Shown here: piece after piece, positions 27,201 to 63,196 of the stretch
Numbering within the stretch: position 1 is the stretch's first letter
Layout: each line of letters opens with the position of its first letter
Assembly: GCA_963788655.1 (NCBI GenBank)
Contig: CAWBHS010000081.1
Location: forward strand, 32,001-96,000
Reading direction: 5' to 3'
Length of the DNA: 64,000 nucleotides
Source of the DNA: an uncultured Verrucomicrobiae bacterium
GTDB lineage: Bacteria > Verrucomicrobiota > Verrucomicrobiia > Limisphaerales > JAFGQR01
Program-made: the position numbers and the translations under genes
Notes under the pieces: generated by a model
The model's database searches: none
What the model was told of the DNA's origin: nothing
Seen by the model: the letters and a program-made list of their open reading frames with translations, nothing else

Positions 27201-30200
27201 CGGCGAATCGGCCACAAAGTGGAACGTGTCGTTGCCGGACCCACCCCAGTAAACGTCGTTGCCGGCCGTGCCTTCAAAGGTAACCGAGCGCGAGAAACCG
27301 GAGGCATTGATGACGTTGTTGCTCGGGCCGCCGCGCAAGGTGACATTCTCAATCGAGCCGAGGTGATAGGTCGAACCATTTGGCAGACTCAGCGAGGCGT
27401 CCTTGAAGAAGCCCTGGAAGATCTGGAACAAGATCCCCTCGATGAAGGAAGCGTCCTTGAGGATCATTTGCGAGGCGTCATTTTCGACGATCAACGAATC
27501 CGTTCCCGTGCCGCCGGAGATGTAGGCCGAGCCATTCCAACCGGTGAGGTCAAAGGTGTTGTTGCGGTAGCCACCGAACAACTTCGCCACTTCGATGCTT
27601 TCCAGCGTAAACGTGCTCAGCGGGAAGCCGCCGGCGGTTTGCTTGTGGACCAGCGTGGCTGAAGTCGGGCCGGTGGTCGTTAGAATAATGAACGGCACGT
27701 CACGATTGCTGACGATGGTGTCGGTGCCGTGTTCGCCATCGACATCCTTGTTGTCCAGCTCGACATAAATCAGGTCGTCGCCCAAGCCGCCACGGATGAT
27801 GTCTTCGCCACCGTCACCAATCAGAATGTCATCCTCCAATTGGCCGTTGATGAAGTCCGGATCCGTGCCGCCCAGGCCGCCGGTGATGGTGTCTTTGCCG
27901 GGGCCGCCGGAATAGACGATGGTGTTGAGGCTGCTCGGATCGGCGATCACCACCGGGGCCGGGATATAGCCGGAATCGCCGATCAGAATATCCCAATCAT
28001 TGCCGCCCTGGATGATGTCGTCATCGGGATTATTGCCAAACGCGTCACCGCCAATATAAACCTTCGAGTCGTCGAGCGGCCGGCCCGTGGGATCGCGCAA
28101 CACCACGTTGAAGTAAAGCGGATCAATGCATAGCCCCAGGGAGTCGGTGTCCAGGATCGGAATGTCCACCGACTTCTGGGTTTCGCCCACGTCGAAAGTG
28201 AGCAAAATCGAGACCGCCAGGTAATTGACCCCATCCAGCGCGGTGCCGTCTTCGGTGCGCACGATCACCACGCGCGCCTCGAAGGAGTTGCCGCGCACGA
28301 CCGTGATCGTGACCACGCCGCTGGCCACGGCTTCGGAGACGCTGTAGCTCGGTTCACTGAAGCCAAAGCCGCCCGACGCCGGCGCGGTGACGAGGTCCGA
28401 CGGCTTGATGCCGGCGTCTTGATTGCTGGCGCTGGGATTAACATTGTTAAGAATAATTTCACTGGTGCGCCCGCCAACGATCACATCGGTATCCACGGCT
28501 TCCGGCACGGCGACGTAGGCGACGAAGGTGAAGCCGTTCGGTATATCGAATTCAACGACATAGTGGCTATCCGAGCCATCGTCGTGCAGATACAAGCCAG
28601 TGAACTGGTAAGTGCCGTCGGTGGTGACAATGGTATTCACCGGATTGCCGTTGCAATCGTACAGGTTCACCAAGACTTCCTCGGTGAACAATTCACCCGC
28701 GTCCTGCCGGTTGTTGTTGTTGGCGTCCAACCAGATTTGGCCGCTGATGGAACCATTGGCGTTATCGCCACTGGTATCCACGGAGAAGATTGGGCCCGCG
28801 TCATAAACCGAGTGCAATGGCGTCGGTGGATTGGTGGTGGCGGTGACGACGGCGTTATAGGTGCCCATATTGACCGGCGCGTTGCCGTCGGTGGCCGTCA
28901 TCCAATGCCCGCCCACCACGTGGTCGTCCCCGCCACCGGCGTCAATAATGTCGTTGCCCGGACCGCCGAAGATGGTGTCATCCGTGCCGCCGCGACCGGT
29001 GTCATCACTGCTGCCGTCGGCAATACTGAACTTCAGACTATTGTCATACCCGACGTTACCGAACGGCGAGATGCCGACGATGCCGTCGTATTCAATGCTC
29101 TGAGTGTCGTTATTGGTGGTGTTCTCGTAACTGCCACCGAAGCCCAAGAAAATTGGAACCAAGGCCAGGTCCTTGTAAGGCGACGTCACCGAGGTGCCGT
29201 CCACCTCGATACTCACCTGGCCCAAATAGACTTGTTGTGAATAGACGCCGCTGCCATTGGTGGACACCACGGCGGACTGCTCCACCCCACCGTAGTACCA
29301 CTTCAATGTGACATCGACGTCTTTGATGCCGTTTTCACCGAAATCCTTGTAGCCATTCCCGTTCTTGTCGTAGAAAACCGTGCCGTTCACCAGAATACCG
29401 TCGTCATCGTAAATGGTGGCTACGGCGGTACTGTCTTCCACCGCCAGGGTGGCGCCCACCGGGTTACTCAACCGGACGGCAAATTCCTCGGAGAGTTCCG
29501 CATCGGTATCCTCATAAACATCCACGGAAATCATGCCGGAACTCGAGTTGGCCGGGATGAAGAGATTGCCGGACGTGGCCACAAAATCCTGGCCGTCCCG
29601 CGCCGTCAAGGGGACGGTTTCATAATGGACCGTCACGCCACCCGGACCCGCGGGCGCAGAGAGATAGACATTGAAGTCGTGCGAACCAGTGCCGCCGGAA
29701 CTGCCTTCCCACAGCCCGTAGCGGAGCGTTGGGAAGATGGAGAACACCGGCGGTACGATGGACAATGCCGGAGTATCCTCATCCCGGATGATCAACGTGG
29801 CTTCATTGGGATCACCGCGAGCTGGTTGGCCGGTGGGCGCCCGCAAATACAACTTCACAGTTTCGTCGCCTTCCACCACGTTGTCCGAGTAGATGGTGAT
29901 GGGGATCTTCCGGCTGGTCTCGTTTTCGCCGAAGACCACCAGTTGCCGGAAGACGGCTTCGTAATCCAATCCGGCCGTGGCCGTGCCATCCACCGTGTAG
30001 AAGACCACAATGGCATTCGAGCTTCCGGGCGTGCGGAGCAGCGTGACTTCGAAGGTATCCGTACCCGAGTCGGGTTCTTCGACAATATACTGGCTGTCAC
30101 TGAAGCGAACGGCCCACGGGCCGTAATCCACATCACTCGTCGCGTCGTCATTGCCGATGTTGATGGTTACGTGGTTGCTCTCCGCCGGAGCGTTGGCGGC

Positions 30201-33200
30201 GATATCGGCATTGTCGGCGCTGAGCAGATTGACGAAGAATTCCTCAACGTCTTCCATCAGGTTGTCGCCGAGCACTTCCACGGTAATGGTCTTGGTCTGG
30301 TCACCGGGCGCGAACACCAATTCACCCTTTTGCTCCGGCGTCGCCACCGCCAGGAGAGCTTCATCCTGGAGCACCGCGGAATCCGGGATGGCCACGTAAT
30401 CCGGATAATTCAGCACGATGACATCGATGATCCCGTCGCCGTCCAAGTCGCCGGAGAAGACCGATTCGACGGCCGTGCCCGGCGAAGTGGCAAAGGTCAC
30501 CGTGATGGTTTTGCCGCTTACCTCTGAGAGGGTGATGTCGAGGTCAACGAATTTTGAGTCATTGTTGCTCTCGGTAACGGAAGTGGTGAACACCCCGGGT
30601 GGGGCTCCAGTAGGCGCAATGGAGACGCTAACCGGCGCGTCATCGTCGGGAATGATGCCAAACGCTCGACCATCCTCAATACGGGCAAAGGCGGGATTGA
30701 ACAAGTCCACGTAGAATTCTTCATCCACTTCGTCGAGGGTGTCGTCGATACATTGAACTTCGACCACTTGCGTCGTTTCGCCGGGCTCGAACGTGATCAG
30801 CGGCGTGGGATTCATGACGTTCGGCACCACTTGGTAATCCGCGCCCGGCAGACCCGAAGGCGTCGCCGCGCCGTTCAAAGGCAACCCGAAGGAGTTGACC
30901 GCCACGTCGGTCCGCCATTCCACCGTGACGGTATATTGGCTCGGGTTGGAGAGTGTCACCACGAACCGGGCGGTCGTGCCTTCGCCCACTTCATAAACCT
31001 TTTTACCGGCATCGTCCAGGGTGGAAGGCGGCAAATAATCCTGAATGGAAATGGTCGGAATCGGATCGTCGTTGATGATCGTCCCAAAGGCCTGAATGGT
31101 GCCGGCGCCAAACGGATTGGTGAGGCTCAGGAGGAATTGCTCGTTGTCCTCATACATGCTGTCGCTGAAGACCGTGACTGCGACCTGGGCGGTGACTTCG
31201 CCCTGGTTGATCACGAGCGTCTGGTTGCTCAGCGCAGCGTAGTCGCCGCTGGCCGCGGTGGCCGAACCATTCAGGATGCTGTAGGGGATGTTCAACGTGC
31301 TGCCCGCCGGGCCCGAAAGCTTGATGGTGAAGACCAATTGGGTCTGACCCACGTTGCCTTCGTTCACGGAAACATCGTTTACGGAAATGGTCGGATTGCC
31401 CGTGTAACCGGCGGTCACGTTGCTTTCGGTGGTGTCGTAACCGACGTGGAACGGATCAGTTTCGCCCGTGGTCGTGTCCGCGTCACTGTCATCGCCAGCT
31501 TCATTGGCCGAGCTGGCGCCGCCGGCATTCTTCACGGCAAAACTCAGACCGGTCAGCGTGAAGAACTTCAGACGGTAATCGAGGGGGTCCAGGCCGACGA
31601 ACTCGAAACTGCCATCCGATTCGGTCTTCACGGTCGCCAGCACATCGCCGGTGCTTTGGCGGATCAACTTCACGGTCACCCCGCCAACGCCGGCTTCGTC
31701 GTCATCCTGGAGACCGTTAAGGTTGTTGTCATAAAAGACCGCCGACTTGATGGCGATGCCGGTGTTGCGGTCGCCCTCGCGGCCCATCGAGTCATCGCCG
31801 AAGATGGTGTCGTTGCCCGGACCGCCGTCAAAGAAGTCGTTGGCGTCTTCCTCGATGGTGTCGGTTTCACCCTTATTCAGGAAATTGCCGCCATACATCA
31901 GGTCGTTGCCTTCGCCGCCGAAAAGGACGTCCACGTTGCCGCCGCCAATGATCACGTCGTTGCCGCTGCCGGTCAGTCCTTCCACACTAACGCCGTCGGT
32001 GGGAATGGCCGCCAGGATGCCACTGATATTGCTGATGCTCACCACTTGGTTATTGACCGTGCTATAACGATCGCCAATCAACAGGTCAATCCCGGCGTGG
32101 CCGTTCAAAAGGTCGTTGCCATCGCCACCAATCAACAGATCGTTGCCCGAGCCGCCGTACAATTCGTCGTCGCCATCGCCGCCATCAAGGATGTCATCAT
32201 CCCGACTGCCGCGGAGAATGTCGCGACCCGCACCCCCGATCAAATAGTCAATGCCGGCACCACCTTCGATGGTGTCGTTGCCGGCGCCGCCTTCGACATA
32301 GTCATTACCTTTGCCCGCATCGATGGTGTCGTCACCCTCGTCGCCGTAAAGCTCGTCGTCGAGCGCGCTACCGGTGATTGTATCCCGCCCCGCACCGCCG
32401 TAAATCGTGATACCCGCCGCCCCGGCCACCAGCGTGTCGTTGCCGGCGTCACCGTAAATCGTCACATTTGTCGCCGCATCGCTGGTGCTGGCGGTAATGG
32501 TATCGTTGCCATCATTGCCATGCACAATCGAGCCGGTGCCGTCGCTCAGGAAGATCGTGTCATTGCCCACGCCCCCGTCGATTTCCACGGGGCTCTGCAC
32601 GCCGCGGAGGTCAATGTAATCATCGCCTTGACCACCATCGGCTACGATCTTCGCCACGTGCTCGTAGGTGTCCTTGTAGTCACCCCAGCGGACTTCCACA
32701 GTCTCATCCCCCGCCGTGCCATCCACGTGCGCCACGATGAAGGTTTCGGAACCGTCGCTGGTGTCAATCGCGCCGCGAGCACCCGCGTTCGGCCCCATGT
32801 TCAACGTCAGGCTCGCGCCTTCGGTGGCCAGTTCGGGCTCAGGGCAGGTGATGTCAAACGAGAACAAGGTGATCTCAGCGAAACGCCAGGTTTTATCGAT
32901 GCTGAAGAAGAAGAGATCCACACTCAGGAACGCTTCGAGGAAGAGTCCCAGTTCGCCGTGGATGTTAAAGATGCAGCGTGGATCGGTCTGGGCCAGGGCA
33001 ATGATTTCGCTGACGCGCACCTTACCGTCGTCATCCACGTCGTTCAGGTCGAAATCGATGGTGGCAAAGATGCCGCCGCGCACACCGGCTTCGACGATGA
33101 GCAAGTCAATCGAAGCGCCGGCGAAGATTTCCCCGCTCAGGGAAAGTTCCGGCTGGTCGTTGCCATTGGCGTCGAAGTCCAGCACATAGAACCCGTCGAG

Positions 33201-36200
33201 CAGATCGAGCACATTCTTGTCTTCGGACGCGATGAATTTCTGAATGCCGAAGGTATCGTAGCCAAACCCAATGTTGATGGTGGCGCCAATCCGGCCGCCA
33301 AACTGGGCGTAGAGCGGCGGGTAGATGGGAATCTTCTGGATGTAGGTGAACTCGAACTTGAAGGTCGGCATCCGCCATTCGATCAGCCGAACGGTGCCGC
33401 CGGTGAAGAGATTAAACAGCTCGGCCGGATTCTTGAAGATCGGAATGCTGAAATTGTCGAGACTGTTAACATCGCCCACAAATCCCGAGGTCTTGCTCTT
33501 GTAAGTCGAACTGGCGCCGGGGCCCCCGGCATTGTTGATGGCGTTGTTAAGCTCATCCGCGGTCTGGGCGGCAACCTCCTGGATGACCTGGATTTTGTTG
33601 CGGTTGCCGGTGCCGTCATCATTGAGCGTGAAGGAACCGAACGGAATCAGGATGCTGCCTTCGCCGATGCCATCCAATTCGTTGATGATGTTGATGACCT
33701 GGATCACGCTGTCGATGAACTTGACCGTGGACGGTTCCAACAAGCCGAAGGCTGCGGCCAGATCGAGCAACGTGATGGTTTCGCCAGCCAGATCGGACAG
33801 CACCGGCAGCCGGGCGGTGACGATATCAACGATCGGCTGAAGCGGTTCGGTGACCTTGCGGATTTGCTCCAGGATCGGACCCATGAAATCGGAGATGAAT
33901 GTCCCGAGATCAAGAGCCACATTGGTGAAAGCCACCGTGGGCGCACCCGCGCCGTTCTGCAGGTCCCAGGCCCAGTCGAGATGGAACTCCGCCACTACCC
34001 GCGGGAAGGAGGTGTTGCCGCCGAAGCTGGCAGCAAGATCAAGGTTAATGTCCGCGACCGCCTCGAGGTTCGCGTCCACGATGTCCTTGAAGGTCGTTCC
34101 GCTGGAAGTCATTTCGGCGAAGGTCAACTTGCCATCGCCGTTGGGATCACGCAGGTCCACCACAAATTGACCGGTGAAATGGCTGGGATCATCCGGATTG
34201 TCCGCCACGTCCAATTGGAGGAAGGCCAGGGTGCCTTTGGCCGCCAAGCCCGGAATGGTCGCTTCCAGATAGACGCGCAACTCGGGGTCAGCCGCGGTGG
34301 CCGATGAATCGAAGAAGAAACCGTCTTCCTTATTCAAGCCAAAGCCGAACTTGAGGTCAAAGCCCAACGCGAGGATCACGTTGCCTTCGACCGCCAGCCC
34401 GAAGCCCGGCACGCCAATGTCGAAATCAATGGGATTGGCAGAAGTATCCACCAGCGCCATGGACTTGGCCAGCCGCAGATTGACCACGAGTCCGGTATCG
34501 CAATCAAGGGTTACATCCAGTTGCTGGTAACCGAGCGACGGATCCAGGGCGTTGCTGGTAGCCGGATCCACCAGGATGTCCAGACCGTCCGGACCGAGCG
34601 TGTTCCAGAAGGCCTGCTTAATGGCGTTCTCGATGGCGGCAGTAGCGCTGCCGGCGGAATTGACCGCGTCGCGCAGATCGCGCAACAGACCGCTGCGGAA
34701 GTCACTGATGAAATTGGCGGCGCCGGCAAAGCCATTGCCAATCAGCGGCAACGAGGTGGAGTAAGCGACGTCTTCCAAACCGTCCTGAATGGTGCCGAGT
34801 AAGCTGTCGAGACCGTCAAGCAACACCCCCGCATGCTGGTCAATGATGTCGCAAACGCCCACGTCCTCGAACAGGCTGCTGATATCGGGCGCGATGAGAA
34901 TCAGCTTGGAAACCGTTACCGTGCCGGAGCCGTTGTTCGAGCCGCTGGGATCGTCATCAAGGAAGGAAACGGTCCAGTCACCACCACCGCCCAGGGCTTC
35001 CACCGCACTCTTGATCGAGGTGGCGGTGGAGGAACCGCTGTTGATTTGGATGGTCAGCGTGTTGTTGGCAAAGGCGGCATTGGCTGAGCTACCCACGCTG
35101 CCGTTCTGCTCGAATACGACTTTGAAGTTATCGGAGTCGCCGGCAACGTTGATGATTTCCAGATTGTTCAGCCCGCCCGGAATCCGCACGTCGGCCACGC
35201 CCATGTCTGCCTGGGTATCAACGAAAAGTCGCACCAAGTCGGGAATGTCGATAACGAGGTAGTTATCCGGGTAACCGTCGCCGTTTCCATCCGTCTCGTT
35301 ACCCAACGCGATTTCACTGGGACCAATTTTCGTGAAGACCGGCAGCACCGCGGAAACGCCGCCTTCCATGTGCAGGTCAATGTTGTCGAAATCAAACCAG
35401 TTTTCGGAGAAATAGTGGCGGCCATCGCCATTGTTGTCCCGCAGGCCCAACCGGAACAGGGCGCCTTTGTCACCGTCGCCGGCATCTGTCTCCGGATTGC
35501 CGTCCTGATCAATCGTCACACTGCCGTCGTGAACTACGATGCCCACAATGGCGCCCACCGCCGCACTGAACTCGATGTTGGAACCGAGCACCTTGGCCGT
35601 CAGCACCACACCGGTCGAGTCATAGAAAAACGGACGAGCCGTACTCGGATTGGTGAGGTCCAAGCCGAAGTCGAGCGTCAAAGCCGCACTGGCGCTAACC
35701 GTCAATTGCGCTTCGCCTTCTACCTGAATAAACGTAGTGACCGCATCGAGAAAATCGGCAATGCCGGAATCTTGTCCCGCCAGTTGCTTGACCAGTTTGT
35801 TCAAGTCGAGTTGCAGCGGGAACGTGTTGGCGTACGCGGTTGTGAAATCGAACGCAAATTTGAGCGAGGTCGTGGTAAACGTCCCGTCCCCGGTGTTACT
35901 GCCAAGCGTATTGTCATTGGTCACCTTGGTCGCCGTCCAAGGGTGGCCGGAAAGACCATTGATGGCAGTGATGACGGTGTTCGTGGTGGTGGTGCTGCCG
36001 TTGATCTCGATCTTCAGAATCTTATTGGTATCGTCCCAGGTAACCGTGGCGTTGTCGCCGGTGATCGTGGGGCTGCCGACGATCTGAATGTTCGTGGCGT
36101 TGAAGTCTTCCGCATCGGCCAGGTTGGTGTTGCTGATAATGAAGCCATTGTTCTCGCCGTCCGGATTGATCGTAGTGGTCGAGGCTGCGGAATTATTGAC

Positions 36201-39200
36201 GCCGCCGGTGGTGGTCAGGACTGTGGAGGCAATGCCGCCGTCGTCCAGCGAAATAGTCAGGATGTCAGGATTGAGATTGAACAGTTGCTCGATCTGCGTC
36301 TCCAGGTCATCGATCATGCTCTGCAACGACTGCGAGTTGGAATGGGCGGCGGCATCGATGAGATCGGCGAACTTGGACGCATAATCGATCATGTCATTGA
36401 TGCTGATATCAATGATCGGCAGGCGTTCATCGAGGAAGCTGAAGGCGCTCAATTGGCCGAGGTTGTCCGCGATGACCTTCAACGCCTGGATGATTTGAGC
36501 AAAGCTGATGTTCTGGAAATTATTCAGGTTCCCGAAGTCCGGATAGGTTAGGAAAATGCCGGTGTTCGTGCCGTCATAGGGATCCGAATTGTAGTCCAGA
36601 TGATTGATGTCCGGAATCCAGAGAGATACTTCCGGGTTGCTGCCCAGCGGGAACGAGAAGCCGAGGCCGCCAACGGAGATGTTGGGCAGGCGGGCCAGGA
36701 AACTGCCTTCGAAATTGGGACCCTCGATGAAGTTGCCGAGATTGGCGCTCTCAATGCCGTTCATCAGGTCGGCAATGTAGAACCGCGAGTCGCCGGTGGT
36801 TTGGTCAGCCAATCCGATACTGACGCTGATCGGGGCCGGCGTGGTGCCGTCATAGTCCAACGTGCCCAAACTGCCACCAGTGGTGGAGATTTCCACGAAG
36901 CCGAACCGCAGCGAACCGTTGATCGGCGTGGTGGTGGTGACTTCCAGCGAACCGGTCATTTGAACGTCCTCGACAAACAAGCCTTTGACGGTCGATTTCG
37001 CGGTAGTCTGAAAATAACTGGTGCCACCAATCTCCAGCGCCTCGGCGCCGAAGCCCAATTCGGTGGCGAAAATGTCGTCCTGCTCGGAGCGGATGGTGAG
37101 CTTGTTGATCAATCCCAGTTGATTGTCGAGGTTGCCATCGCCGTTCAGGTCTTCCACCCGGTCCAGCACGCCATCGCCATCCAGATCCTCCCCGGTGTCC
37201 AAGCGACCGTTGCCGTTGGTGTCTTCGTTCACCGTACCGAGCATGCCGTCGCCATCGTAGTCCTCATTGATCACGGAGATGGCCAGCCCGGTGCCAGCTT
37301 TTTGCGCGTAAAGCAACTGGTCAATGGCCGTGCTGTTGTAAGTGTTTTCTTTGAAGACTCGGTTCAGGTCCTTCGCCAAATCTACGAGGTTGTTGTTTGG
37401 CGTGAGATCCATCGGATCGGTGCCGTCCGTATAGGACTTGGGTAGCGTCAGGGCCACGGGCGTCAGGGCATTGTCAAAGAAGACTTCAAAGTGGGCATCT
37501 TCACTGATACGCCCGTTGGCCGGGGCCGGAATCAGGCTCGACGAGATGACGCGCGGCACTTCGCCGGCGCCGAGGTCAAAGCCCAAAGTGAACTGGAAGC
37601 TGACGGTGGCGGCAATGTTGAGTTCTCCACTCAAATCAGCACCAGCGATCGAGCCCAAGTCGCCACCGAAATCAAAGGGAAGCGTTGTCGAGTAGGTGGC
37701 GCCCTTATCCACCATGTAGGTGTAAACCTGCTGGGCTTCGTTATAAACCACCGACAGGCCAAGCAAATTGCCCAATTCCTCGAAGAACCCCGGCGTGTCG
37801 TAACGCTCGGTCACGATGCCCACCTGGTCCACCGTAGTATCGTCCGCATCGCCCGGTCCAAAGCCCAGCGCGTTGAATTCGGTATTGCCGGTAACCAGGC
37901 TCAACGTGGTATCGGTGGCGATCAGCGTCGGGGTCAGCGCCAGGACAAACAGGTCGTCATCCGGATTGGTCGTGTCACGTTCATTGATGCGCGCCACCAC
38001 ACTTCCGGCCAAGCCGGCGGTCATCAACGCGGTGTTGAACCGGGTGACGAGATCATTCCAGTCGCCATAGGCGCCGCTGACCGACACCGGCACCGGTGGA
38101 TCATCGCCGATTTTGAGTTGGAAGTCCGCGCTGCTCAGCGTGCCACTGCTGGTCGCGGTGAGACTGCGCGACTGCAACTCCACGCTGATCATGTTGCTGT
38201 AAATCTCGTCCAGGAACAGTTGTGACCAGTCCAGGAAATCGCCGACTGTCGAGCCACCGGTGAAGGGGATTTCGACGTTGAACACGTCGGCGCCCTTGAA
38301 AATGTCCATCCAGTTGAGCAGTTGCCGGAGCATCCCCACGAACTCGAACGGACCGGGAGCGGCAAAGTCGTCAAAGGACAAGCCGGTGGTGATGTTGCCG
38401 CTCGCATCAATCGAGAGCAGCAAAGAATTGTCGCCTTGGTTGCGGAATTCAACCGTACCGCTGCCGGTATCGACTTCCACCGTGAAGTTAAACGGCAAGG
38501 CCACCGAACCAATGTGCAGGTAGCCGTTGACGTAAATGCGCAGGTATTCGGTTTCGGTCAGATTGATGACGGTCGAACCGCTGGGGGTCGTCACCGTGGT
38601 GTTCACCGCGGCAGTGGTGGTATTCACTTCGAGGCTAATGTCGCCGCTCATACCCACCAATCCGACTTCAAACTCGACATCCGCTACCCCAGCCAGTCCT
38701 CCGTTGGAAATGACAAACGCGCCCGTGCCGTTGTTGAATGAGGCAACGGTCAGCGAACTCACCTTCAAATCGAACGTCAAATCCTCCGCTGCCACTTTGA
38801 AGGTGTTTGGATCGGCATCCGATTTCTCGAACCGGAACACACCGCTCAAGACGACAAATCCGGCCAGATCAATGTCCGCCGCACCAGCCACGGCAAGGTA
38901 ATCGTGATAGTAGGCGCCGGTAAATTCGATGGTCACGTCGTCTGCCGCATCGTCCGAGATGCTGACCGACAGCGGCCCCACATCCGCGCCCGTGCCATTG
39001 AATTCAATTCGCAACTCAGTCGCCGTGACGCTGATGCCCGTGGCGCCGCTCAGGCTGGCGGAATTCACCGTGACCACTCCGGCCACGCCGGCGGGGTAAA
39101 TCACCAAAGCTCCGGTGCCGCCGCTGACATCCAAACTCAGCACCCCAGCCGACAGCGTGCTGCTCAATCCGGCAACGCCGACGGTGATGTAATCCGGGTC

Positions 39201-42200
39201 CGGATCGGCATCCACCAAGGTCAGAACAATGGAATCCATCATGAAGGACTGCATCTGTCCCCCAATGTTGATGTCGATGCCAAACGGCGATCCAGGATCG
39301 TAACTCAGGCGATTGAACGGACCAGCAGGCAGGTCCAGTTGTTCGAGCAACTCATCGACCAGCGGCAAGGCCATGGTTTCCAGGCCATCGCCACCCGTCA
39401 GCGGCGCGGGACTGGTCGTGCCCGAACCGGGTCCCGGACCGGCGCCCACTTCCTCGTCAATGGGACTACCAGTGTTGTTGAACGACCAACTGAACGGCTG
39501 CGTGAAACTATTGTTAAAGGCTGAAACCGTGACATCAATGGATCCCTGACCAGCCATGCCCAGATCCGTGAACACGAACAGCGCCGTTCCGTTATTCGCG
39601 GTCAACAGGCTGGTGCCAAAGTCGAAGGCCACATTGCCGGCCCGGACGACTACCAATTGCGTGCCGCCGGTGCTCTCCCGCTGTTCGAAACTGAAATCGC
39701 CCGTAATGCTCACGCCAAACACGTCGAGCGTCACGCCGGTGCCTTGCACTTGGAGATACGGACCCGCCGGCACATCAAGGTGAATAGTGCTGCCGCCGAC
39801 ATCGACCATTTCGTCCACCGCATCCTCCGTGTCGTTAATGCGCACGGTAAACGAGCCGGAAAGAGATACGCCCGTCACATTGAGGGTCACGTCGGCCGAA
39901 GCCTGACCCGCAATGCCATCGCTGGTAATGATGAAGGCGCCCGCAACGTTGCTGATATTCAAGAGGTCGTTGGCAAGCGTACCGAGATCGAATTGGACGT
40001 TGCTGGCCGCCACGGTGACGACCTCCAAGCCGCCAGGACTGGTCGTTTTGCTCTCGAACACGAAATCGCCGGTCAACCCAATCCCGAGAACTGTCAACTG
40101 CGCTCCCGTGGCTTCCACTCGCAGGTACGGGCCGGCCGGCAGCGTTGGAATGCTCACCGACATACCGTTTACGTCCACCGTGCGCGCGGAAAAGATGGTG
40201 TTGGTGTCATTGAGCCGAACATGGAAGGTGCCGGTCAGGTTGAGCGCGGAGACATTCAACGCCACGGTCGCGGTGGTCGAACCGGCAACGCCTGCATCGG
40301 TGAAAACAAACGCGCCTGAACCATTGGTAACGGTCAGCAGTGCCGACGCGCCTTCGTCGAAAGTGAACTGCAAGTTGGCCACGCCCAGCAGAAATTCTTC
40401 GTCGCCGTTGGCGGGATTCGCATCGGTGTCGTTGGGTTCGAACACAAAATCGCCCGTTAAAGTCGCATTGGGCGTGGTCAAGACGATGCTGGCATTGCCG
40501 GAAAGACGGTAATACGGGCCGGCGGGCAAACTCACCGTTTCGCCGTCAATTGTCGAAACCGCTGTCGGTGAGGTGTTGAAGGCCAAGTTCAAGGTGGTGC
40601 CCGAAATATCGATGTTCGGCAGGTCCGGACCGGCGGTGATGGTCAAAGTGGCGGTTCCAGCCAGTTCATCGCCGAGAATGAGGAATTTGCCGCTGCCATT
40701 CTCCACCCGGAGGATGCGCGTGGAACTGCCGCCCACACCCAAGGTGGCTTCATACACCACGTCTTCCGCGAGGACGACGGTTTCAGTTGCCGTCTTCTTG
40801 AGCGTAAACACGCCTTCGAGCGTTTGGCCCAGGATTTCCATTGAGCCATCCACTTCAATCGTTAGATCCGGGTCGGTGCCGCTGAACAAATCGTCGGACT
40901 GGATGCGAACCGTGTGCGTTCCAGTGTAATTCACTACGAAGCCGGTCAACGCGCCGTCCAATACGAAGGAGGCATCCACCGTGCCGGCGTGAGTGAGGTT
41001 GAAAGCATCGCCGACATTGATGGTGCCGCTGGCGATGTCCGTAAGTGTTGATCGGGTAATTCGCCCGCTGGTGAGGACACTATCATCCGGGGTCGCCGTC
41101 ACCGAGGCATCAAAGGCCACCGACCAACTTGTAACGTCCAGGTTCAGCGGGGCGCCCGGCGGCGTGAGGTCGAAGGCAAACCCGCCCGTCCCGCTGGCGT
41201 CCACCGTGGCCCGAGCAGTCAGGTCTTGAATCTCGACGTAAGCGTCGGCGTCGTAGCCCAAGGTAAATTGAAATTCCAAGGTGCCCTTAATGTCCACCAT
41301 CGGGCTGGGATCAAACGCCGCATCCAAGACTGCGCCGGCGACATCGCTGAGCGCTTGGTTGAGGTGGGTCTGGGTCAGTTGCAGGTTGATGTCCCAGGAA
41401 AAAGGATCGGAGGCGTTCGTGCCATAATGGCCCAGGACACCGAGGATGGTAATTTCGAAACCAGCGACGGTCGTCCCGTCCCAACTTTCGATTTCACTGG
41501 TGACCTGTGATTGGTTCGGTAACAGAGCCAGAAGCGAGTTCAGTTGACCGCGAATGGCATCGTTGATTCCCTGGCCGGCATCGGCCCAAGCGCCAATCGT
41601 CGAGCCGATCAGTGGCAGGTCTTCAGCCAGTTCGCCGATCCCGTCCAAGCCATTGGCAATCTGCTGCAATTTGACCAACCCGTCTTGCAATGCCGTCTCT
41701 GCGGTCGGGACAATCGTGTGGGTGGAGACAACTTGAAGGGTTAGATCATTGGCGTTATAGACCGGAACAAAAGCCAATTCCGGATGGCCAGGGATACTGG
41801 TAGTGCCACGCCAATTGGCAAATTCACCGGTGCGTGAGCCCCAAGTGAAAATAACAAAAGTATCTCCGGCGGAAAGTGTTGGGCTGCCAATGACTTGAAT
41901 TTGAAGAGTGCCGTCAAGTTCGGCCAGACCGCTAATAACAAATTGATCGTGTCCCGTCGGGTCAATCCCGGGACCGTCCGTTCCTCCAATGCGAATCGTA
42001 GTAGTTTCACCAAGCTCCTGGCTGAAGGTCGTCAGATTTGTGACCGTAATGCCAACCGGGGCGCCTTGAGTTTCCAGAGCTGCTTCCAAGAGAGGGGAGG
42101 CAGACTCAAGCAGTCCGTCAGCAGGAGGTCCGTTGGCGCTGCGTAACGTCTGGGTCAATTGACCCGCCATGGAATCGGAAACGGGATTGAAATCGGGTTT

Positions 42201-42596
42201 GATCGTCGGCGGCAGTTCGTCCGCCTCGAACGGTTCGCTTGGCGACTGTTCGGTCTGGTTTTCAGTCGCTTCGTGTTCCGCATTTACCTTTTGCTCGAAT
42301 GTTCCAGGCTGTGACTCATTGTCACTCTCTGGTGCGGACGAGGATTCGCTGGAAGCAGGAGAGGAATCGGAAGAAACATCTTCAAAGATGTTCCCCAAAC
42401 TAGAGGCCGGATCGTAGTCAAGTTGCTCCTCATCAGCGTCAGAATTGGCAGGAGATTGCTCAGTCGTTTCGACGGGATCAAGGAGTTGGTCGGCCAGAAT
42501 GGCACCGGCACATGCGCCGGCAACGTCTGCGGAAAGCATGATTCGCGGCTCCAGAGCCTCGAGTTCGAATCGTCGTTTTGAGGTTTCGTGCTTCAC
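24232..42596 (-). CDS. Giant (~6100 aa) LEPR-XLL protein with RTX Ca-binding, SdrD B-like and Calx-beta repeats (frameshift ~26478)
   Basis: N-terminal FELEALEPRIMLSAD; many GGxGxDxL nonapeptides; VFYDNNLNGLQD and IWLDANNNNRQD; TVDGTATAGLDY. ORFs 26355..42596 and 24232..26403 join with one base missing. Confidence 0.92.
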
Positions 42597-42700
42597 TGCT
42601 GATCCAATCAGTCAGGCCGTTCCACCCGCAGACTTGGCCACTTAAACTCAGTGAACAAATCATGTCCAGGGTAAACTTTATTTTTCCGCGAACGGGGAAA

Positions 42701-42729
42701 CCTATAATAAAGGATGGTTACTTTGTCAA
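42701..42729 (-). promoter_or_regulatory. Putative sigma70 promoter of the giant gene
   Basis: Minus strand TTGACA-N17-TATAGG in an AT-rich patch ~105 bp upstream of the start. Confidence 0.45.
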
Positions 42730-42943
42730 TAGGAATATTTTATTGATCATCACTTTTTGCCCCTCGCCCGACCCCGCATGGACGCCAACGAGATCGCATA
42801 CCTTTTTCTCCACCGCACACTGATGCGCGTTTACGCTAGATTTCCCAGGAACCTTGTTCTGCTTTGTTACAAAGTCCCTGCATCCTCACAAGCTCCCCTG
42901 CCCTGTCTTTCAACGTTACAATCCTTCACGTTTCAAGCAGTCG

Positions 42944-58059: not shown

Positions 58060-60057
58060 TCACGTTCCCCCCGCGTCCCCGCCGGCAAAGGAAAGGGCCT
58101 CCTCCAGCCACGTGTCGGTGCGCAACACAGTCTTGCGTTGTTTGAAGGTGTGATGTTGGGAGTTGTGTTGCGCCAACACGAAGGCGGCTTGGGCAATTCT
58201 CCGGCGGCCGGGCACGCCGTTGCGAAGGCTGCGCCGCAAGGCATGTTGCAACGATCGCGGCAGGTAGCGGCGGATGAGTTCGTCCTCGGCGCTGACAAAT
58301 GCTTGCGCGCTGCCGGGATCTCCCTGCCGGGCAGAACGACCAAAGAGCTGCCGGTCCACCCGCCCGGACTCGTGGCGTTCGGTGGACAGCACGTGCAATC
58401 CGCCGTTGATCGCCACACCGGCGCCCAGTTTTATGTCCGTACCGCGTCCGGCCATGTTGGTGGCAATGGTGATGCATCCGGGTTCCCCGGCCAGGGCCAC
58501 GATGGCGGCTTCTTCCTGATGGCGCACCGCGTTGAGCAAGCGGAACTCCAGCTTCCGCTCGTGGAGCAAGGTGGCGAGCTTTTCACTGGCCGCCACACTG
58601 CGCGAGCCGACCAGGATTGGGCGACCGACGGTGTGCAGCCGTTCGATTTCCTCGACAATAGCCGTCCATTTGGAATCTTCATCCGCAAACACCCGGTCCG
58701 GCCAATGCTCGCGGATGCACGGCTTGTTGGTCGGGATGGCAACCACTGGGAGCTTGTAGATTTGCCAAAATTCCCCCGCCGCCTCGCGGGCCGTGCCCGA
58801 CATGCCGGCCAAGCGATGAAAGCACCGGAAGAACCGTTGAAAGCTGAGCCGGGCGATGGTTTCGGAGGGATTGGAAATGGTCAATTCTTCCTTGGCTTCG
58901 ATGGCCTGGTGTAAACCCTGACGCCAGGTGCGCTGGGGCATTTGCCGGCCGGTGAATTCATCGACGATGACGATCTTCTCGCTGTCCGCAATGATGTATT
59001 GCTTATCACGATGAAAGAATTCGCGCGCCACCAATGCCTGCCGGATTAATTCGTCCCGCCGGTCCCGGCCCTGCCAAAGCCCGGGCAACGACGCGCAAGC
59101 CGCCGCCACCTTTTCGCGCCCCGGCCGGGTCAATTCGATTTCCCGGTAACGTTGATTGAGCTGGTAGTCCGTTCCGGTTGCCAGGGAGTCCGCAATCTGT
59201 TGGGCGATGGTAACGGCTTGTTCGAGGTTCTCATTTTTCTGCGCCGCGGAGATGATGAGCGGCGTCACCGCTTCGTCCACCAATACGCTGTCCGCTTCGT
59301 CCACAATGGCGGTATATAGGCCCCGCATCACCAAGCCGTCGCGCACCGCCAATTGCGGACGTAGCAACTGACGGATCAATCGGCGTGACGGATGATTCAG
59401 CGTGCCGAGCCGCAACCGGTCGCGCAGAAAGTCCGCCAGCAACTCTTTACTGGTCACGTACGTGATGTCCGCCGCGTAACCCTTCTGGCGGTCTGGCGGC
59501 TCCATCGCACCAGTAACGCAGCCTTCGCGAACGCCGCAAAAGGTGTAGAGCGGCCGCATCCATTTCGCGTCACGCTGAACGAGGTAATCGTTCACCGTCA
59601 CGATGTGGCAGGGGCGCCGGGTCCATCCCGCCAGCACCGCCGCCAGACTGGCCGTCAGCGTCTTGCCTTCGCCGGTGGCCATTTCCGCCAGGTAACCTCG
59701 GTGCAACGCCAACGCCCCCATCAGTTGCACGACGAACGGCCGCAATCCCAGGAGCCGCGCGGCCGCTTCCCGAACGGCCGCCAGCGCCGGCACGACGCAA
59801 TCTTCAACATCTTTCCCGCCCCGACGGAATTGCGCGCGAAACTCCATGAGTTTCTCGTGCAATTGATGATTGGGCAGATCCTGCCAGTGGCCGGCATGCG
59901 CGTCGATGGTTTCGGCGAGGCGGCGCAGGTCCGTCAGAATGTGCGGGCGACGATGGTAATGTCCCGCCACGCTGTGGACCGCCGCGTCCAATCCCTTGAG
60001 CAAACGCGGCGGCGTGCGGTGACTAAAGCGGCGGAATTGCTGAGTGGGCGTGATCAC
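58060..60057 (-). CDS. secA: Short SecA paralog (~665 aa; DEAD motor plus PPXD, C-terminally truncated)
   Basis: EMATGEGKT, VTVNDYL, IVDEADSVLVDEA, VDEFTGR, GLHQAIEAKE, ATNMAGRGTDI, GRSARQGDPG. GTG start inferred 7 bp after the upstream stop. Confidence 0.9.
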   Translation of the reverse strand: MITPTQQFRRFSHRTPPRLLKGLDAAVHSVAGHYHRRPHILTDLRRLAETIDAHAGHWQDLPNHQLHEKLMEFRAQFRRGGKDVEDCVVPALAAVREAAARLLGLRPFVVQLMGALALHRGYLAEMATGEGKTLTASLAAVLAGWTRRPCHIVTVNDYLVQRDAKWMRPLYTFCGVREGCVTGAMEPPDRQKGYAADITYVTSKELLADFLRDRLRLGTLNHPSRRLIRQLLRPQLAVRDGLVMRGLYTAIVDEADSVLVDEAVTPLIISAAQKNENLEQAVTIAQQIADSLATGTDYQLNQRYREIELTRPGREKVAAACASLPGLWQGRDRRDELIRQALVAREFFHRDKQYIIADSEKIVIVDEFTGRQMPQRTWRQGLHQAIEAKEELTISNPSETIARLSFQRFFRCFHRLAGMSGTAREAAGEFWQIYKLPVVAIPTNKPCIREHWPDRVFADEDSKWTAIVEEIERLHTVGRPILVGSRSVAASEKLATLLHERKLEFRLLNAVRHQEEAAIVALAGEPGCITIATNMAGRGTDIKLGAGVAINGGLHVLSTERHESGRVDRQLFGRSARQGDPGSAQAFVSAEDELIRRYLPRSLQHALRRSLRNGVPGRRRIAQAAFVLAQHNSQHHTFKQRKTVLRTDTWLEEALSFAGGDAGGT

Positions 60058-60064
60058 GCGGCGT

Positions 60065-62215
60065 TCACATTTGATACCGCTTTTGCAGAAGTTGGTACAG
60101 ACGACGCATCCAGCGAGGCAGCAGCGGCTCGGGATCGAGATCAAAACGAATCTTGCCGGCGCGTCCATGGACATAGGCGACTTCCGGATCCGTCGGCAAA
60201 TCGGCATGAACTTCAAAAAACGGCTCCGCCGCCTTCGACGGATCCTTCGGCGTGACGGCAACCTCGCCACCCGCGGCCCAGCCCAATGCGGGCGAGGGTA
60301 ATTGCTGTTTGCCGCCAGGAATGACTTCCCAACTTTTGGCGCGAATCATTTCTCCTGCCTGGCCGTACAACCGAATTTCCGCGCCATGAATGTGCCGGGC
60401 AAAAATGGCATCGACATCCGCCTGTTCGACCGTAGCCGTGAACTCAAACGTGGCCGGTTCAACCAACAACCCCAGAGGCGTGCCACGTTCCAACCGCCGT
60501 CCCAGGTAATCCTGAATGCCGGGCGCCACCCAGACGCCGGGCTGCCGAGCCCGAACTACCAAAGACGCGTGATCGGCTTTCAATTTGCGCAAACGCTGCG
60601 TCACGGTTTCCATCCGGCTTTGGAGCGGTTTCAGATTGGCGGTGGCCTCTTTCATGGCCTGACGGAGACGCGCTTCAATTTCCTGGTAACGTGCCTGCGC
60701 GTTGACCAAATCCAGTTCGAGCTCCGGATTGCTCAATTGCACGAGCGCATCATTCGGTCGCACGCGACTGCCTGGCTGGGCCAGCACGGTTTGGACGGTG
60801 CCCGCGACCTCATTCAATACCAACGACCGATCATGCGCCTGAAGAATGCCCGGCGCACGGAAATGGCTGGGAAAGGGAATGACCGCCAGCAATACCAGGA
60901 GCGCTGCCGCCAGGCCCACCGTGGCAGCCACGGCCCGCGGACGGTTCCGATCGAGACGGGGACTGGACGCGAGGTAATGGATGAACTTGCCAACCGGCAC
61001 AATCACCCAGGAGATCAGACAGACGACCGCCATGATGATGCCCAGAATAAAAAAACGGTCGGCGACCAGCAGCAAGATGCCGCCGAAGACAATCACCCGA
61101 TAAATCCCGCTGGCAATGCCGAAGACCACCAGCCAGACGGCCTCGCGGCGATTGTTCGCCGGGCTGTCCTCTTTCTTTAAACCAAACAACCAGCGTTCGG
61201 CATAAAAGCGCAGTTGCCGCATGGCGCGCTGGGAGAGGTTCGGGATTTCGAGCAGGTCGGACAAAATGTAGTAACCATCAAACCGCAGCAACGGATTGAC
61301 GTTGAACACGACCGTGGACACTGACGCGACAAACAACATGTTGTACGCCAGGCTGTGGATGGTGCCGGGCCCAGTGTTTGCCCAGACAAAAACCGCCAGC
61401 GCGGCCACGAACAACTCGACGATCATGCCCGCGCATCCGACCAGGATGCGTTTCCAGCGGCTGCGGAAGGCCCAACTTGAAGTGGCATCCACGTACGGCA
61501 CCGGCGTGAAGATCATGAACAGGATGCCCATGGTGTGAACTTCGCCGCCGAACCGACGGCAGAAAAAGGCATGGCCGAACTCGTGCAGCGTCTTGATGAT
61601 CACCAATCCCGCGTACAGCAGGAACAAGTTGTCCGGCGCCAGCACCGCCTGCGAATGTTCGCGCAGCGTGGAAAAATTGTCGGCTACAACCTTCAATCCC
61701 CACCCGACCACCACCAGCCAGATCAAGGCGCCAATCGGATTGAGCAGCTTGCCCACCAGCGGCATTGCGCGCACCAGAAACCGGTCGGGATCCAGCAGCG
61801 GGATGCGCATGAACATGATGTTCATCAATCGCGCCGCAGTTTCGCGTTGTTTGCGTTTCTTGTACCGGTCGAACAATTGGGCGCTGTCAGCGGCCAGATC
61901 GTATTGCAGCAGGTTGGCGAAATACAATTGGGACAACAACTGGATTACGGCTTCCTGGCCGGGGGCTTCATCGGGGAACCGGTTGAGGCACTGCTGCCAG
62001 GCCTCCTGCACCGTGCAGTCCGGCCGCAAGCGCGCGACGAACTCGTACGCCGCGGGCCGGAGCCGGAAGAACTGGTTGCTGAAGGGATTCTCCAGGACGA
62101 TCCACCGATCCCCTCGATAATTTTGGCGCCGCACCTTGATGCCAGGGCGCAGGTGAATGCGCTGGTTGGCAATGCGGTACCACGACTCACTAAAAGTTGG
62201 AAGACTTTCAGCCAT
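60065..62215 (-). CDS. Fusion protein: PqqD/RRE-like domain, M50 (site-2) metallopeptidase and HlyD-like membrane fusion domain
   Basis: N-terminal winged-helix-like FRLRPAAYEFVARL...TVQEAW; HEFGH; YVDATSSW; NPLLRFDGYY; lipoyl-like GTVQTVLAQPGSRV, coiled coil, VRARQPG. Confidence 0.85.
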   Translation of the reverse strand: MAESLPTFSESWYRIANQRIHLRPGIKVRRQNYRGDRWIVLENPFSNQFFRLRPAAYEFVARLRPDCTVQEAWQQCLNRFPDEAPGQEAVIQLLSQLYFANLLQYDLAADSAQLFDRYKKRKQRETAARLMNIMFMRIPLLDPDRFLVRAMPLVGKLLNPIGALIWLVVVGWGLKVVADNFSTLREHSQAVLAPDNLFLLYAGLVIIKTLHEFGHAFFCRRFGGEVHTMGILFMIFTPVPYVDATSSWAFRSRWKRILVGCAGMIVELFVAALAVFVWANTGPGTIHSLAYNMLFVASVSTVVFNVNPLLRFDGYYILSDLLEIPNLSQRAMRQLRFYAERWLFGLKKEDSPANNRREAVWLVVFGIASGIYRVIVFGGILLLVADRFFILGIIMAVVCLISWVIVPVGKFIHYLASSPRLDRNRPRAVAATVGLAAALLVLLAVIPFPSHFRAPGILQAHDRSLVLNEVAGTVQTVLAQPGSRVRPNDALVQLSNPELELDLVNAQARYQEIEARLRQAMKEATANLKPLQSRMETVTQRLRKLKADHASLVVRARQPGVWVAPGIQDYLGRRLERGTPLGLLVEPATFEFTATVEQADVDAIFARHIHGAEIRLYGQAGEMIRAKSWEVIPGGKQQLPSPALGWAAGGEVAVTPKDPSKAAEPFFEVHADLPTDPEVAYVHGRAGKIRFDLDPEPLLPRWMRRLYQLLQKRYQM

Positions 62216-62323
62216 GCATTGTTCGAATGGACTTTAGGCTAATTGCGCCGCCGATGCAACCTTGCTGCTGCGCGGGCATTGGAAGACCTCAAGAACTATG
62301 AGACTAGTACCGGAAGTAGCATT

Positions 62324-62459
62324 AACCACGGATTTCATGGATTTCACGGATACAAAACCTTGGACGCCCGAGGCGTCGCCAAGTTGCCTCACAATACAGG
62401 TGACCACTCTTCTTCAGGAAAGTTCTTCGCCATCTGTGTAATCCGGGCGATCCGTGGTT
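62324..62459. repeat. 9-nt periodic inverted repeat AACCACGGATTTCA...ATCCGTGGTT
   Basis: Arms at 62324-62352 and 62432-62459. Confidence 0.7.
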
Positions 62460-62479
62460 CCAACTGCTTTGAGGTTCAA

Positions 62480-62706
62480 GTGGTGCGACGGCAGGGGTGC
62501 TGTGGGAAGAAGGCATTTTGAAAAATATTGCTCGCCGAGTTCGCTGACGGTTTGGGGGAAGGAGCATTATGGGGAAGAACGCCGGGCGAGTAAGTGGGAG
62601 CGAGTCGAGCGCACTGTGTCCGCCGAACCGCGCCGTTCGGGCTGCAAAAAGTTGCGCTTGGCGCAGACGCCGACGGAGCAGCGGGTGAAGGTATGGCTGG
62701 CGAATG
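62480..62706 (+). mobile_element. Degraded RAYT-like transposase fragment
   Basis: VRRQGCCGKKAF*KILLAE...EHYGEERRAS...ERTVSAEPRRSG...VKVWLA resembles RRGWCxGxEAFRKELL...HYGEERxES...KVxLA; contains a stop and a frameshift. Confidence 0.55.
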
Positions 62707-62819
62707 GTGACCGGTCAGCCATCTCTAACTTGGCGTGTGCGCGAAAATTTTGGAAAAAGTGAGAACATACTCTTTCAAAAGAACCTTCCAATAACCGGGA
62801 CCGCCCCCTTCACCTTTAC

Positions 62820-62917
62820 GGTGGGATGTGCGCCGACGCGGCGGCAGACGGCCGGGAACCCGCTGTAAACTGGTCACAGGGAGGGGCTGCGTCGGTGCCC
62901 GGGGCCAACCGCCCGCC
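62820..62917 (+). ncRNA. Candidate structured RNA (nested helices plus pseudoknot), family unassigned
   Basis: 13-bp helix 62830-42/62886-98; inner helix 62850-55/62870-75; crossing helix 62863-66/62876-79; closing helix 62820-25/62912-17. All non-Watson-Crick pairs are G-U on the + strand. Confidence 0.5.
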
Positions 62918-63068
62918 CAAAACCCAAACCCCAAAAAACACTGCTTGCCTCGCCGGCGTGCGCGCCTAAAATCCACAAAAATGAACCTTTATGGAAAAGC
63001 AATTCTCCGTGAACCGCGGAGCGTCCAAAAAGCAAATTCCTATCAATTTAATGGAGCGAAGGAGGCAG

Positions 63069-63180
63069 AGTAGGGCCGGCGTCCCGCCGGCCTCAAACGG
63101 AGTTGCTCTCTTCCTGCACCCGGACATGCTGCGTTCCGATCGTGCCCACTCAGTCAACGCTGGGGGACGTCGGCCCTACT
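63069..63180. repeat. REP-like inverted repeat AGTAGGGCCGGCGTCCCGCCGGC...GGGACGTCGGCCCTACT
   Basis: Inverted arms; core shared with 18925..19040. Confidence 0.75.
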
Positions 63181-63196
63181 TTGAGGGAGTGACCGC

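Follow-up and report, generated by a model that had tools for sequence, protein, structure and literature searches.

How do bacteria export proteins of 5,000 to more than 30,000 residues that carry no signal peptide? This open problem is raised by a locus in a 64,000-nucleotide stretch of DNA (the window) from an uncultured Verrucomicrobiae bacterium (GenBank assembly GCA_963788655.1, contig CAWBHS010000081.1, positions 32,001 to 96,000 of the forward strand), which offers a candidate reader, peptidase and conduit for such chains. Two adjacent genes code for a fusion of a RiPP (ribosomally made peptide that is post-translationally modified) recognition element (RRE), an M50 intramembrane protease and a periplasmic adaptor, and for a short secondary SecA. 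Both genes are real and intact, and together they make up one half of a module that comparative genomics brought to light in 2015. We propose that they constitute half of a dedicated export and processing machine, free of any ABC transporter, for proteins with an N-terminal leader of the form (F)xLExLExR(I/L)L(L/F). Taken as a whole, a leader-reading RRE–M50/adaptor/TolC exporter with SecA as an accessory appears to be the best explanation of the locus, at a probability of roughly 0.6. Behind it stand the five-gene set, its domain anatomy, an intact protease site, the ATPase motifs and a tight co-occurrence with the leader. The first gene and its elements lie as follows (position 1 being the first letter of the window):

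60065..62215, reverse strand: fusion of RRE, M50 intramembrane zinc protease and periplasmic adaptor, 716 amino acids (aa), from Pfam, an AlphaFold2 model and structure search
61901..62164, reverse strand: RRE (PqqD-like) domain, residues 18-105, with a predicted leader-binding strand (48-51) and helix (87-99)
61571..61585, reverse strand: HExxH zinc motif (HEFGH), residues 211-215; H211 and E212 in 150/150 alignment rows, H215 in 149/150
61274..61297, reverse strand: NPxxxxDG motif (NPLLRFDG), residues 307-314, with the third zinc ligand D313 in 150/150 rows
60134..60871, reverse strand: MexA/MacA/HlyD-type periplasmic adaptor domain, residues 449-694, from structure search of the model

Pfam searches with the fusion recovered Peptidase_M50 above the cut-off (E 5e-9) and, below it, HlyD_D23 (E 2e-4) and PqqD (E 3.5e-3). 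The PqqD model reaches E<=0.05 in 10 of 42 members of the fusion family, which is large (4,541 representatives at E<=1e-30), and the ESM Atlas assigns the RRE region to PqqD clusters (0.96). In the AlphaFold2 model (150-row alignment, pLDDT 94.2, pTM 0.83) residues 18-105 resemble the leader-bound lasso RREs 6jx3_B (Z 9.2, root-mean-square deviation (rmsd) 3.0, 83 aligned) and 5v1u_A (Z 9.0, rmsd 3.0, 81 aligned), with three strands followed by three helices as in solved RREs. These Z-scores are middling, and we keep the assignment because the likeness covers the whole domain and agrees with the PqqD clusters. The membrane part (about residues 144-326) resembles SpoIVFB (Z 9.7, rmsd 4.2, 134 aligned) and RseP (Z 9.6, rmsd 3.3, 132 aligned); sequence and model together thus place the HExxH and third-ligand motifs in a predicted membrane-embedded M50 fold, as in site-2 proteases, and the conserved catalytic residues indicate that the protease site is intact. 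Residues 449-694 resemble MexA (Z 15.3, rmsd 4.9, 217 aligned). Foldseek with the whole model returned adaptors only, the RRE and protease likenesses coming from a wider structure search. The preliminary description of this locus, made without database searches, had already recognized the PqqD/RRE–M50–HlyD fusion, and these results agree with it.

It had also inferred, from repeats and transposase debris upstream of the fusion gene, that the operon is split, and the DNA in question is:

62216..63196, no strand assigned: non-coding stretch upstream of the fusion gene, holding dispersed repeats at the place taken in relatives by the GAF-HlyD gene; it marks the operon split

The split is confirmed. 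An operon of genes for TolC, a free HlyD and a GAF-HlyD fusion lies on a second contig (G000:C60:324862-329619) and stops where relatives go on with the M50 gene; all five parts of the module are hence present in the genome, at two places. The repeats too are there (short dispersed repeats, with pieces resembling a small open reading frame (ORF) elsewhere in the genome, a putative transposase gene). A Pfam scan of six small ORFs gave no matches. Just past the window end (G000:C81:96819-97026) there is a 208-bp copy, 95% identical, of the DNA for RRE residues 29-97, within a 142-codon open frame and preceded by a 157-bp segment 77% identical to window positions 62621-62777. Either a rearrangement may have left this copy behind, or it may be a very small RRE gene in its own right.

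The 64-kb window itself yielded no gene for TolC, a second adaptor or a HlyB-type protein, as had been noted before. In the assembly as a whole (115 contigs, 86% complete) a search for canonical secA, tolC and HlyD genes, advised at the outset, found them all: there is one short SecA, one full M50 fusion and a separate canonical secA. At that completeness the best PrtD/HlyB-type ABC match scores 226 bits against a cut-off of 510, and the best match to the HlyD of the type I secretion system (T1SS) 53 bits against an NCBIfam cut-off of 209. The adaptors and TolC on the second contig, with no T1SS ABC protein above cut-off in the genome, fit the dedicated type-I-like module that had been predicted. 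Frameshifts interrupt the genes for TolC (C60:324862-326782), canonical SecA (C38:173634-176778) and the giant proteins described below; since canonical secA, an essential gene, is among them, we read them as assembly errors, and broken genes in this assembly are to be taken with caution. In four alphaproteobacterial loci (L117, L118, L122, L127) a DUF3467 gene lies between the giant gene and the adaptors; none was found in this 86%-complete genome.

What might such a machine export? A giant protein is encoded 15.5 kb downstream of the module genes (gene start 42596):

26355..42596, reverse strand: giant candidate cargo, a 5,413-aa open frame with Calx-beta, SdrD_B and RTX repeats, the frame changing near its end
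42531..42569, reverse strand: LEPR-XLL leader motif, residues 10-22 of the giant, above the NF012209 cut-off
24232..26403, reverse strand: RTX-rich C-terminal part of the giant gene, carried on in a different frame (723 aa)

The frame shifts near window position 26,380 and carries on in the ORF at 24232-26403. The leader passes the NF012209 cut-off and scores 15.8 against PF07595, below its cut-off of 25.5. The preliminary description took this protein for the obvious substrate; it does carry the leader, although it is one of three giants with a LEPR-XLL leader in the genome (the others on contigs C22 and C23), and proximity alone is a weak argument. That it has no Sec signal is suggested by its sequence and hydropathy (peak 1.32, with four acidic residues among the first 24). 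The C22 (82951-113940) and C23 (9358-34868) giants appear to run over several frames and may exceed 8,000-10,000 aa. Behind the leader, all three giants have an acidic Ser/Pro-rich linker with a short YDP motif (starts of the three giants, viewed together with window 42597-42800).

The association of module and leader was examined in 300 genomes of the same phylum, each at least 90% complete and searched four times. The RRE–M50 part was matched in 69, namely 24 of a close clade (E<=3e-87) and 45 of a distant one (E>=3e-61), the border being a score gap drawn by us. Exactly the 24 close-clade genomes have the short SecA (E<=1e-140). The NF012209 leader was found in 22 of these 24, in none of the 45 distant-clade genomes and in 5 of the 231 genomes without the M50 part, four of these five matches being weak and in frames of 38-354 aa. 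Our own leader alignment (A3) added one more close genome, bringing those with an N-terminal LExRxL leader to 23 of 24; co-occurrence with LEPR-XLL proteins across genomes, fixed beforehand as a test of the proposed function, is thus what the survey found. In 20 close loci (up to 20 kb) the short SecA gene follows the M50 gene in 18, GAF-HlyD is present in 18 and TolC in 17, while a leader gene lies within the region in 8 and directly behind secA in 6.

The distant clade has the same three adaptor genes together with variant leaders. No short SecA was found in any of its 20 loci analysed (from 18 genomes) or in any of its 45 genomes, and five of five genomes checked by family have canonical SecA only. 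ABC-type ORFs occur in just 2 of the 20 loci, neither adjacent, and a variant leader in 10. A DNA pattern for the commonest variant leader matched 29 of the 45 distant genomes, none of the 24 close ones and 3 of the 231 that are M50-less, against 0 of 301 for the reversed pattern; it was derived from five of the matched genomes, without which the count is 24 of 40, and the match in G093 is probably due to chance. In one genus (g62) the variant leader stands at 5/6 versus 0/13, and in 30 of 30 loci read the motif begins 3-14 residues past a Met. A leader profile, run on 50 chosen genomes, raised the distant count to 31 of 45, and a third leader type beside the locus in four further genomes brings those with variant leaders to 35 of 45. 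The longest leader-bearing frame per genome has a median of 8,483 aa with the short SecA (n=22) versus 3,622 aa without it (n=31), the ranges overlapping and contig ends truncating frames. Leader-bearing frames of 16,500-20,500 aa are seen in related genomes (G062:C23, G044:C5, G035:C142, G060:C1, G180:C1). At the other extreme, two SecA-less genomes (G093, G132) have leaders on two small tandem ORFs of 114-220 codons (L099:2044-2872, L104:17562-18520), beside radical SAM/SPASM and nucleotidyltransferase genes and with GAF-HlyD, HlyD, TolC and the M50 fusion next to them; the machine may be put to a RiPP-like use there.

Can the RRE–M50 part read the leader? A complex predicted for fusion residues 1-420 and the N-terminal 34 residues of the window giant scored 0.78, the best of three controls scoring 0.00; the mark passed is one reached by 116 of 157 solved pairs and by 2 of 215 mismatched ones. 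At least 88% of contacts are shared between runs, and the pLDDT of the partner is 64 or higher. In the model, RRE residues 48-51 and helix residues 93-97 are the pairing partners of leader residues 12-15, the invariant leader R18 touches residues 243-248 and 316 (D243/W248/Y316), residues 19-20 touch 241-243, and the interface includes the zinc-site residues H211, E212, H215 and D313. The complex thus speaks for the plausibility of a leader that lies along the RRE and extends into the zinc site. Fusion residues 22-406 also resemble the daptide RRE–site-2 protease model NF041824 over 3-366 of its 379 positions, at 178 bits against a cut-off of 300; membership of that family is not indicated at this score, and no daptide genes were seen in the window. 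From the SecA-less distant clade with its variant leaders, and from the leader complex model, we take the core of the system to be leader, RRE–M50, adaptors and TolC, with SecA as an accessory.

The second gene is the following:

58060..60057, reverse strand: short secondary SecA, 665 aa, with nucleotide-binding domain 1 (NBD1), PPXD, NBD2 and the start of the scaffold helix; without wing domain, two-helix finger and C-tail; clamp Phe replaced by A208

It starts with the GTG at 60057, exactly 7 bases past the stop codon of the fusion gene, in agreement with the spacing first reported. Two start codons further upstream, with which SecA would have 736 aa and overlap the M50 gene, were dismissed because homologues have only 659-680 aa (50-row alignment). 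Pfam detects SecA_DEAD, PP_bind and P-loop and no SecA_SW. The statement that all ATPase motifs are present was borne out: Walker A, the DEAD box and the motif VI arginines are invariant in 50 of 50 rows, and the PPXD clamp is retained with its connecting strands and PP-loop Arg invariant, the features common to SecA proteins being thus present with one exception. This is the clamp residue F182 of Bacillus subtilis SecA, which corresponds to A208 and is an alanine in all of the 120 closest homologues and in 49 of 50 alignment rows, two alphaproteobacterial copies keeping Phe. Only residues 16-604 of B. subtilis SecA can be aligned, and the short SecA accordingly lacks wing, two-helix finger and tail. 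NCBIfam SecA2 models give 388-537 bits, all below their cut-offs of 725-1100; the protein is therefore neither a canonical SecA nor one of the named SecA2 equivalogs. It is truncated much like the N68 fragment of Escherichia coli SecA, reported to hydrolyse ATP and to bind SecYEG and signal peptides while being unable to translocate through SecYEG (PMC5603524). Most substitutions of F182 are reported to impair translocation severely, and the clamp alone, without large finger movements, to be able to move a chain (Dong 2023, PMC9926265). Similar wingless SecA domains are described within giant Omnitrophota proteins (10.1101/2023.11.21.568195), and a transposon mutant of Ruegeria pomeroyi SPO2713, listed as SecA 2, shows a fitness loss (-0.42) in one co-culture (PMC10041152); this locus is numbered next to SPO2714, an M50 gene in the table of Kamneva (PMC4452313). 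The role that fits the facts best is that of an accessory ATP-dependent clamp or chaperone, not a universal motor.

Beyond the phylum the M50 part matched 65 plasmid records, of which 11 were examined. Three of them carry the short SecA, with giants of about 10,500-12,700 aa; eight, including plasmids of E. coli, Burkholderia, Thalassospira and Eleftheria, lack it and have upstream proteins of 3,300-7,200 aa. On proteobacterial plasmids, with or without SecA, 6 of 8 upstream genes read begin with a leader. An E. coli IncF plasmid bears a SecA-less version with a 4,457-aa Ig-like cargo between IS elements (L120/L123; NZ_CP022155.1:118682-138427), and matches of the same score occur in 17 Escherichia and 8 Citrobacter plasmid records. 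In a quick tree of 54 RRE–M50 parts all 24 SecA-adjacent rows fall in one 27-row group (support 99), and SecA adjacency needs 2 changes against a shuffled mean of 17.9; the tree has no true root and hence does not order gain versus loss of SecA. Judged from sequence matches, the module appears widespread among bacteria; no functional test of it was found in the literature.

On these observations we propose the following mechanism. The cytoplasmic RRE would bind leader residues 12-15 as an added strand between beta3 and alpha3; the invariant leader Arg would dock by D243/W248/Y316, with the next small hydrophobic residues entering the zinc site, and cleavage by the protease around residues 20-26 would free the protein of its leader. 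A periplasmic tunnel to the cognate TolC may consist of the three adaptors (M50-fused, GAF-fused and free), with an entry made of the membrane helices of the M50 and GAF proteins. The chain would exit N-terminus first, probably during translation and aided by folding outside the cell, and the short SecA, associated with the longest cargoes, would act as an accessory clamp or chaperone of one branch. One machine on two contigs would serve the three giants of this genome. Export and leader cleavage by the module are thus what we infer. Several points weigh against this proposal. No energy source was identified for the SecA-less branch, and the window giant carries RTX repeats at its C-terminus, as classical T1SS cargo usually does. 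Leaders and machine do not coincide everywhere: one close-clade genome (G281) has the machine with no leader found, as do 10 of 45 distant-clade genomes, leaders occur in three genomes (G052, G115, G235) in which a profile search, too, gave no M50 part, and 2 of the 8 plasmid upstream genes lack a leader. Kin in the genome sample are not independent, so that P values overstate the association, and cargo and exporter can be co-inherited as one island. The complex score may reflect likeness to solved RRE–leader (6jx3, 5v1u) and site-2 protease–substrate (8vjl) complexes, and its controls were unrelated proteins rather than scrambled or non-cognate leaders. The genome is only 86% complete, with TolC, the giants and canonical secA frameshifted. 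Finally, Chlorobium giants are reported in the periplasm in the absence of a partner cell, a misfit with a simple one-step conduit (10.64898/2026.03.19.712371).

The alternatives differ chiefly in what carries the chain across the inner membrane. In the version of the preliminary description and of Kamneva, the short SecA of this branch takes the place of the ABC ATPase as the actual motor and drives the chain through an M50 pore. The gene order speaks for it (secA 7 bp behind the M50 gene here and following it in 18 of 20 close loci), as do the 24/24 concordance of short SecA and close M50, the invariant ATPase motifs with PPXD, connecting strands and PP-loop Arg kept, the longer cargoes of SecA-bearing genomes, and the report that the clamp alone could drive a chain (PMC9926265). 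Nevertheless, the same machine occurs without a short SecA in 45 of 69 M50-positive genomes, the critical clamp Phe is Ala in the window protein and its closest homologues, and the comparable N68 truncation cannot catalyse SecYEG translocation (PMC5603524). We therefore consider it unlikely, and the claim that SecA is the defining motor is not supported, given the distant clade (20/20 loci and 45/45 genomes without it) and the missing wing, finger and clamp Phe. Less likely still would be a module that only recognizes, processes and tethers or releases its cargo, with passage over the inner membrane left to SecYEG, for which the short SecA would be a dedicated targeting factor, or to a classical T1SS that reads the C-terminal RTX end. 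An N68-like SecA still binds SecYEG and signal peptides (PMC5603524), the cargo has RTX repeats, Chlorobium giants gather in the periplasm with a Sap-type route proposed (10.64898/2026.03.19.712371), and no M50 polypeptide pore is among the solved structures matched in the structure searches. On the other hand, the locus is accompanied by three adaptors and by a cognate TolC (the latter in 17 of 20 close loci), this genome has no T1SS ABC or HlyD above cut-off, the ABC-type ORFs in 2 of 20 distant loci are not adjacent, and the leader is acidic and weakly hydrophobic.

A further reading would make the module a signalling or small-peptide system, by GAF-sensed regulated intramembrane proteolysis or RiPP-like maturation, that merely travels with the giants, or would take the split copy to be decaying. 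The GAF domain, the homology to the daptide peptidase and the two loci with leaders on small proteins beside a radical SAM/SPASM gene point towards signalling or maturation, and the split operon, repeats and duplicate of RRE-coding DNA towards decay. Yet leader type tracks the M50 clade, most leaders stand at the front of proteins thousands of residues long, the two window genes are complete and keep every catalytic residue, and the frameshifts also strike the essential canonical secA, which points to assembly error; we regard this reading as very improbable. The leader-reading exporter thus remains our preferred explanation. Its widest form falls somewhat short of an even chance: an unnamed class of secretion in which a RiPP-style unit for leader recognition and removal sits on a three-adaptor TolC tunnel that lacks any ABC, RND or MFS pump. 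Proteins would leave N-terminus first, translation and extracellular folding would supply the energy, and in one lineage a stripped SecA would have been recruited to feed in chains of 5,000-20,000 residues or more independently of SecY. It would be the route for LEPR-XLL/PF07595/DUF4347-leader proteins, with leaders and receptors forming orthogonal pairs.

How new is such a machine? The preliminary description knew of no mechanistic account, yet one existed: Kamneva, Poudel and Ward (2015; PMC4452313) described a secondary SecA_DEAD locus without ABC transporter, comprising a SecA without SecA_SW, M50-HlyD, GAF-HlyD, HlyD and sometimes OEP, the genes being sometimes scattered, and hypothesized that the secondary SecA provides ATP hydrolysis in place of the ABC ATPase, with the M50 protein as the pore. 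In its main text the words leader and PqqD are absent and no cargo is proposed; the Fig 3 legend mentions proteins >1,000 aa, and large neighbours may be drawn there. The experimental part reported is a re-analysis of expression. All features of that locus recur here (a wingless SecA besides the canonical one, an adjacent M50-HlyD, and GAF-HlyD, HlyD and TolC on the second contig), but it was defined by SecA, whereas here the SecA-less branch is larger and the leader is the shared feature. Thus the gene set and the SecA idea were in print in 2015, while no open-access paper was found to link this module to the leader, and the available text of PMC10868602, PMC10952558, PMC13723633 and PMC12448352 does not describe the machine.

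Type I secretion (HlyB-HlyD-TolC; C39-ABC bacteriocin exporters) shares the adaptor and TolC-family channel and the giant RTX/Calx-beta cargo, but differs in its HlyB/PrtD-type ABC transporter, of which neither half-operon has one, in having C39 where RRE–M50 stands here, in lacking three different adaptors, and in its C-terminal signal or double-glycine leader as opposed to an N-terminal LExRxL leader. In C39-ABC bacteriocin exporters a membrane protease fused to the exporter removes an N-terminal leader, and a fused membrane protease would likewise cut one here. SecA2/SecY2 systems also tie a second SecA paralogue to dedicated large substrates, but no SecY2 or Asp genes were seen here, and the short SecA lacks wing and finger. 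The daptide protease MpaP (NF041824) and the epipeptide protease EpeP, the latter thought to cleave and export its peptide, are alike in fusing an RRE to an intramembrane M50 protease, and unlike in having no periplasmic adaptor or Gram-negative TolC context and in acting on small modified peptides rather than mostly giant substrates. Daptide precursors carry ELExMEAP, in a leader that their authors state MpaP removes; its resemblance to ELEALEPR suggests a shared origin.

Among the neighbours of the two module genes and the giant, an ABC-2-type permease gene (42944-44557; GldF-like, under cut-off) shares the strand of the giant gene and stops 348 bp upstream of it; it was set aside as an exporter ATPase system, not being HlyB-type. 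Directly past the giant gene (20066-24170) lies a signal-peptide-like GEVED-repeat/IgGFc-binding/HYR protein in two frames. An apbE gene downstream of the short secA was also set aside.

The LEPR-type motif has been a suspected export signal since 2004, for which Studholme is reportedly the source, and a reader for it was lacking until the present candidate. It is thought to be a novel export signal (PMC8567305); the available text assigns no exporter to the planctomycete export signal PF07595/LEPR-XLL (NF012209), and Chlorobium giants with LEPRxLL are said to lack known transport signals (10.64898/2026.03.19.712371). The earlier inferences on the cargo and on recognition of its leader by the RRE–M50 part are strongly supported by genomics (the co-occurrence) and modelling (the 0.78 complex), cleavage being a step we propose; the central role given to SecA is not. 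The surprise is limited, the gene set and SecA idea having been published. If true in its widest form, the proposal would explain how LEPR-XLL/PF07595/DUF4347-leader proteins, some of the largest bacterial proteins among them, leave the cell. A tripartite TolC machine without a classical pump would widen the known ways of energising secretion, the module would tie RiPP enzymology to protein export, and a short N-terminal tag could serve the secretion of very large recombinant proteins.

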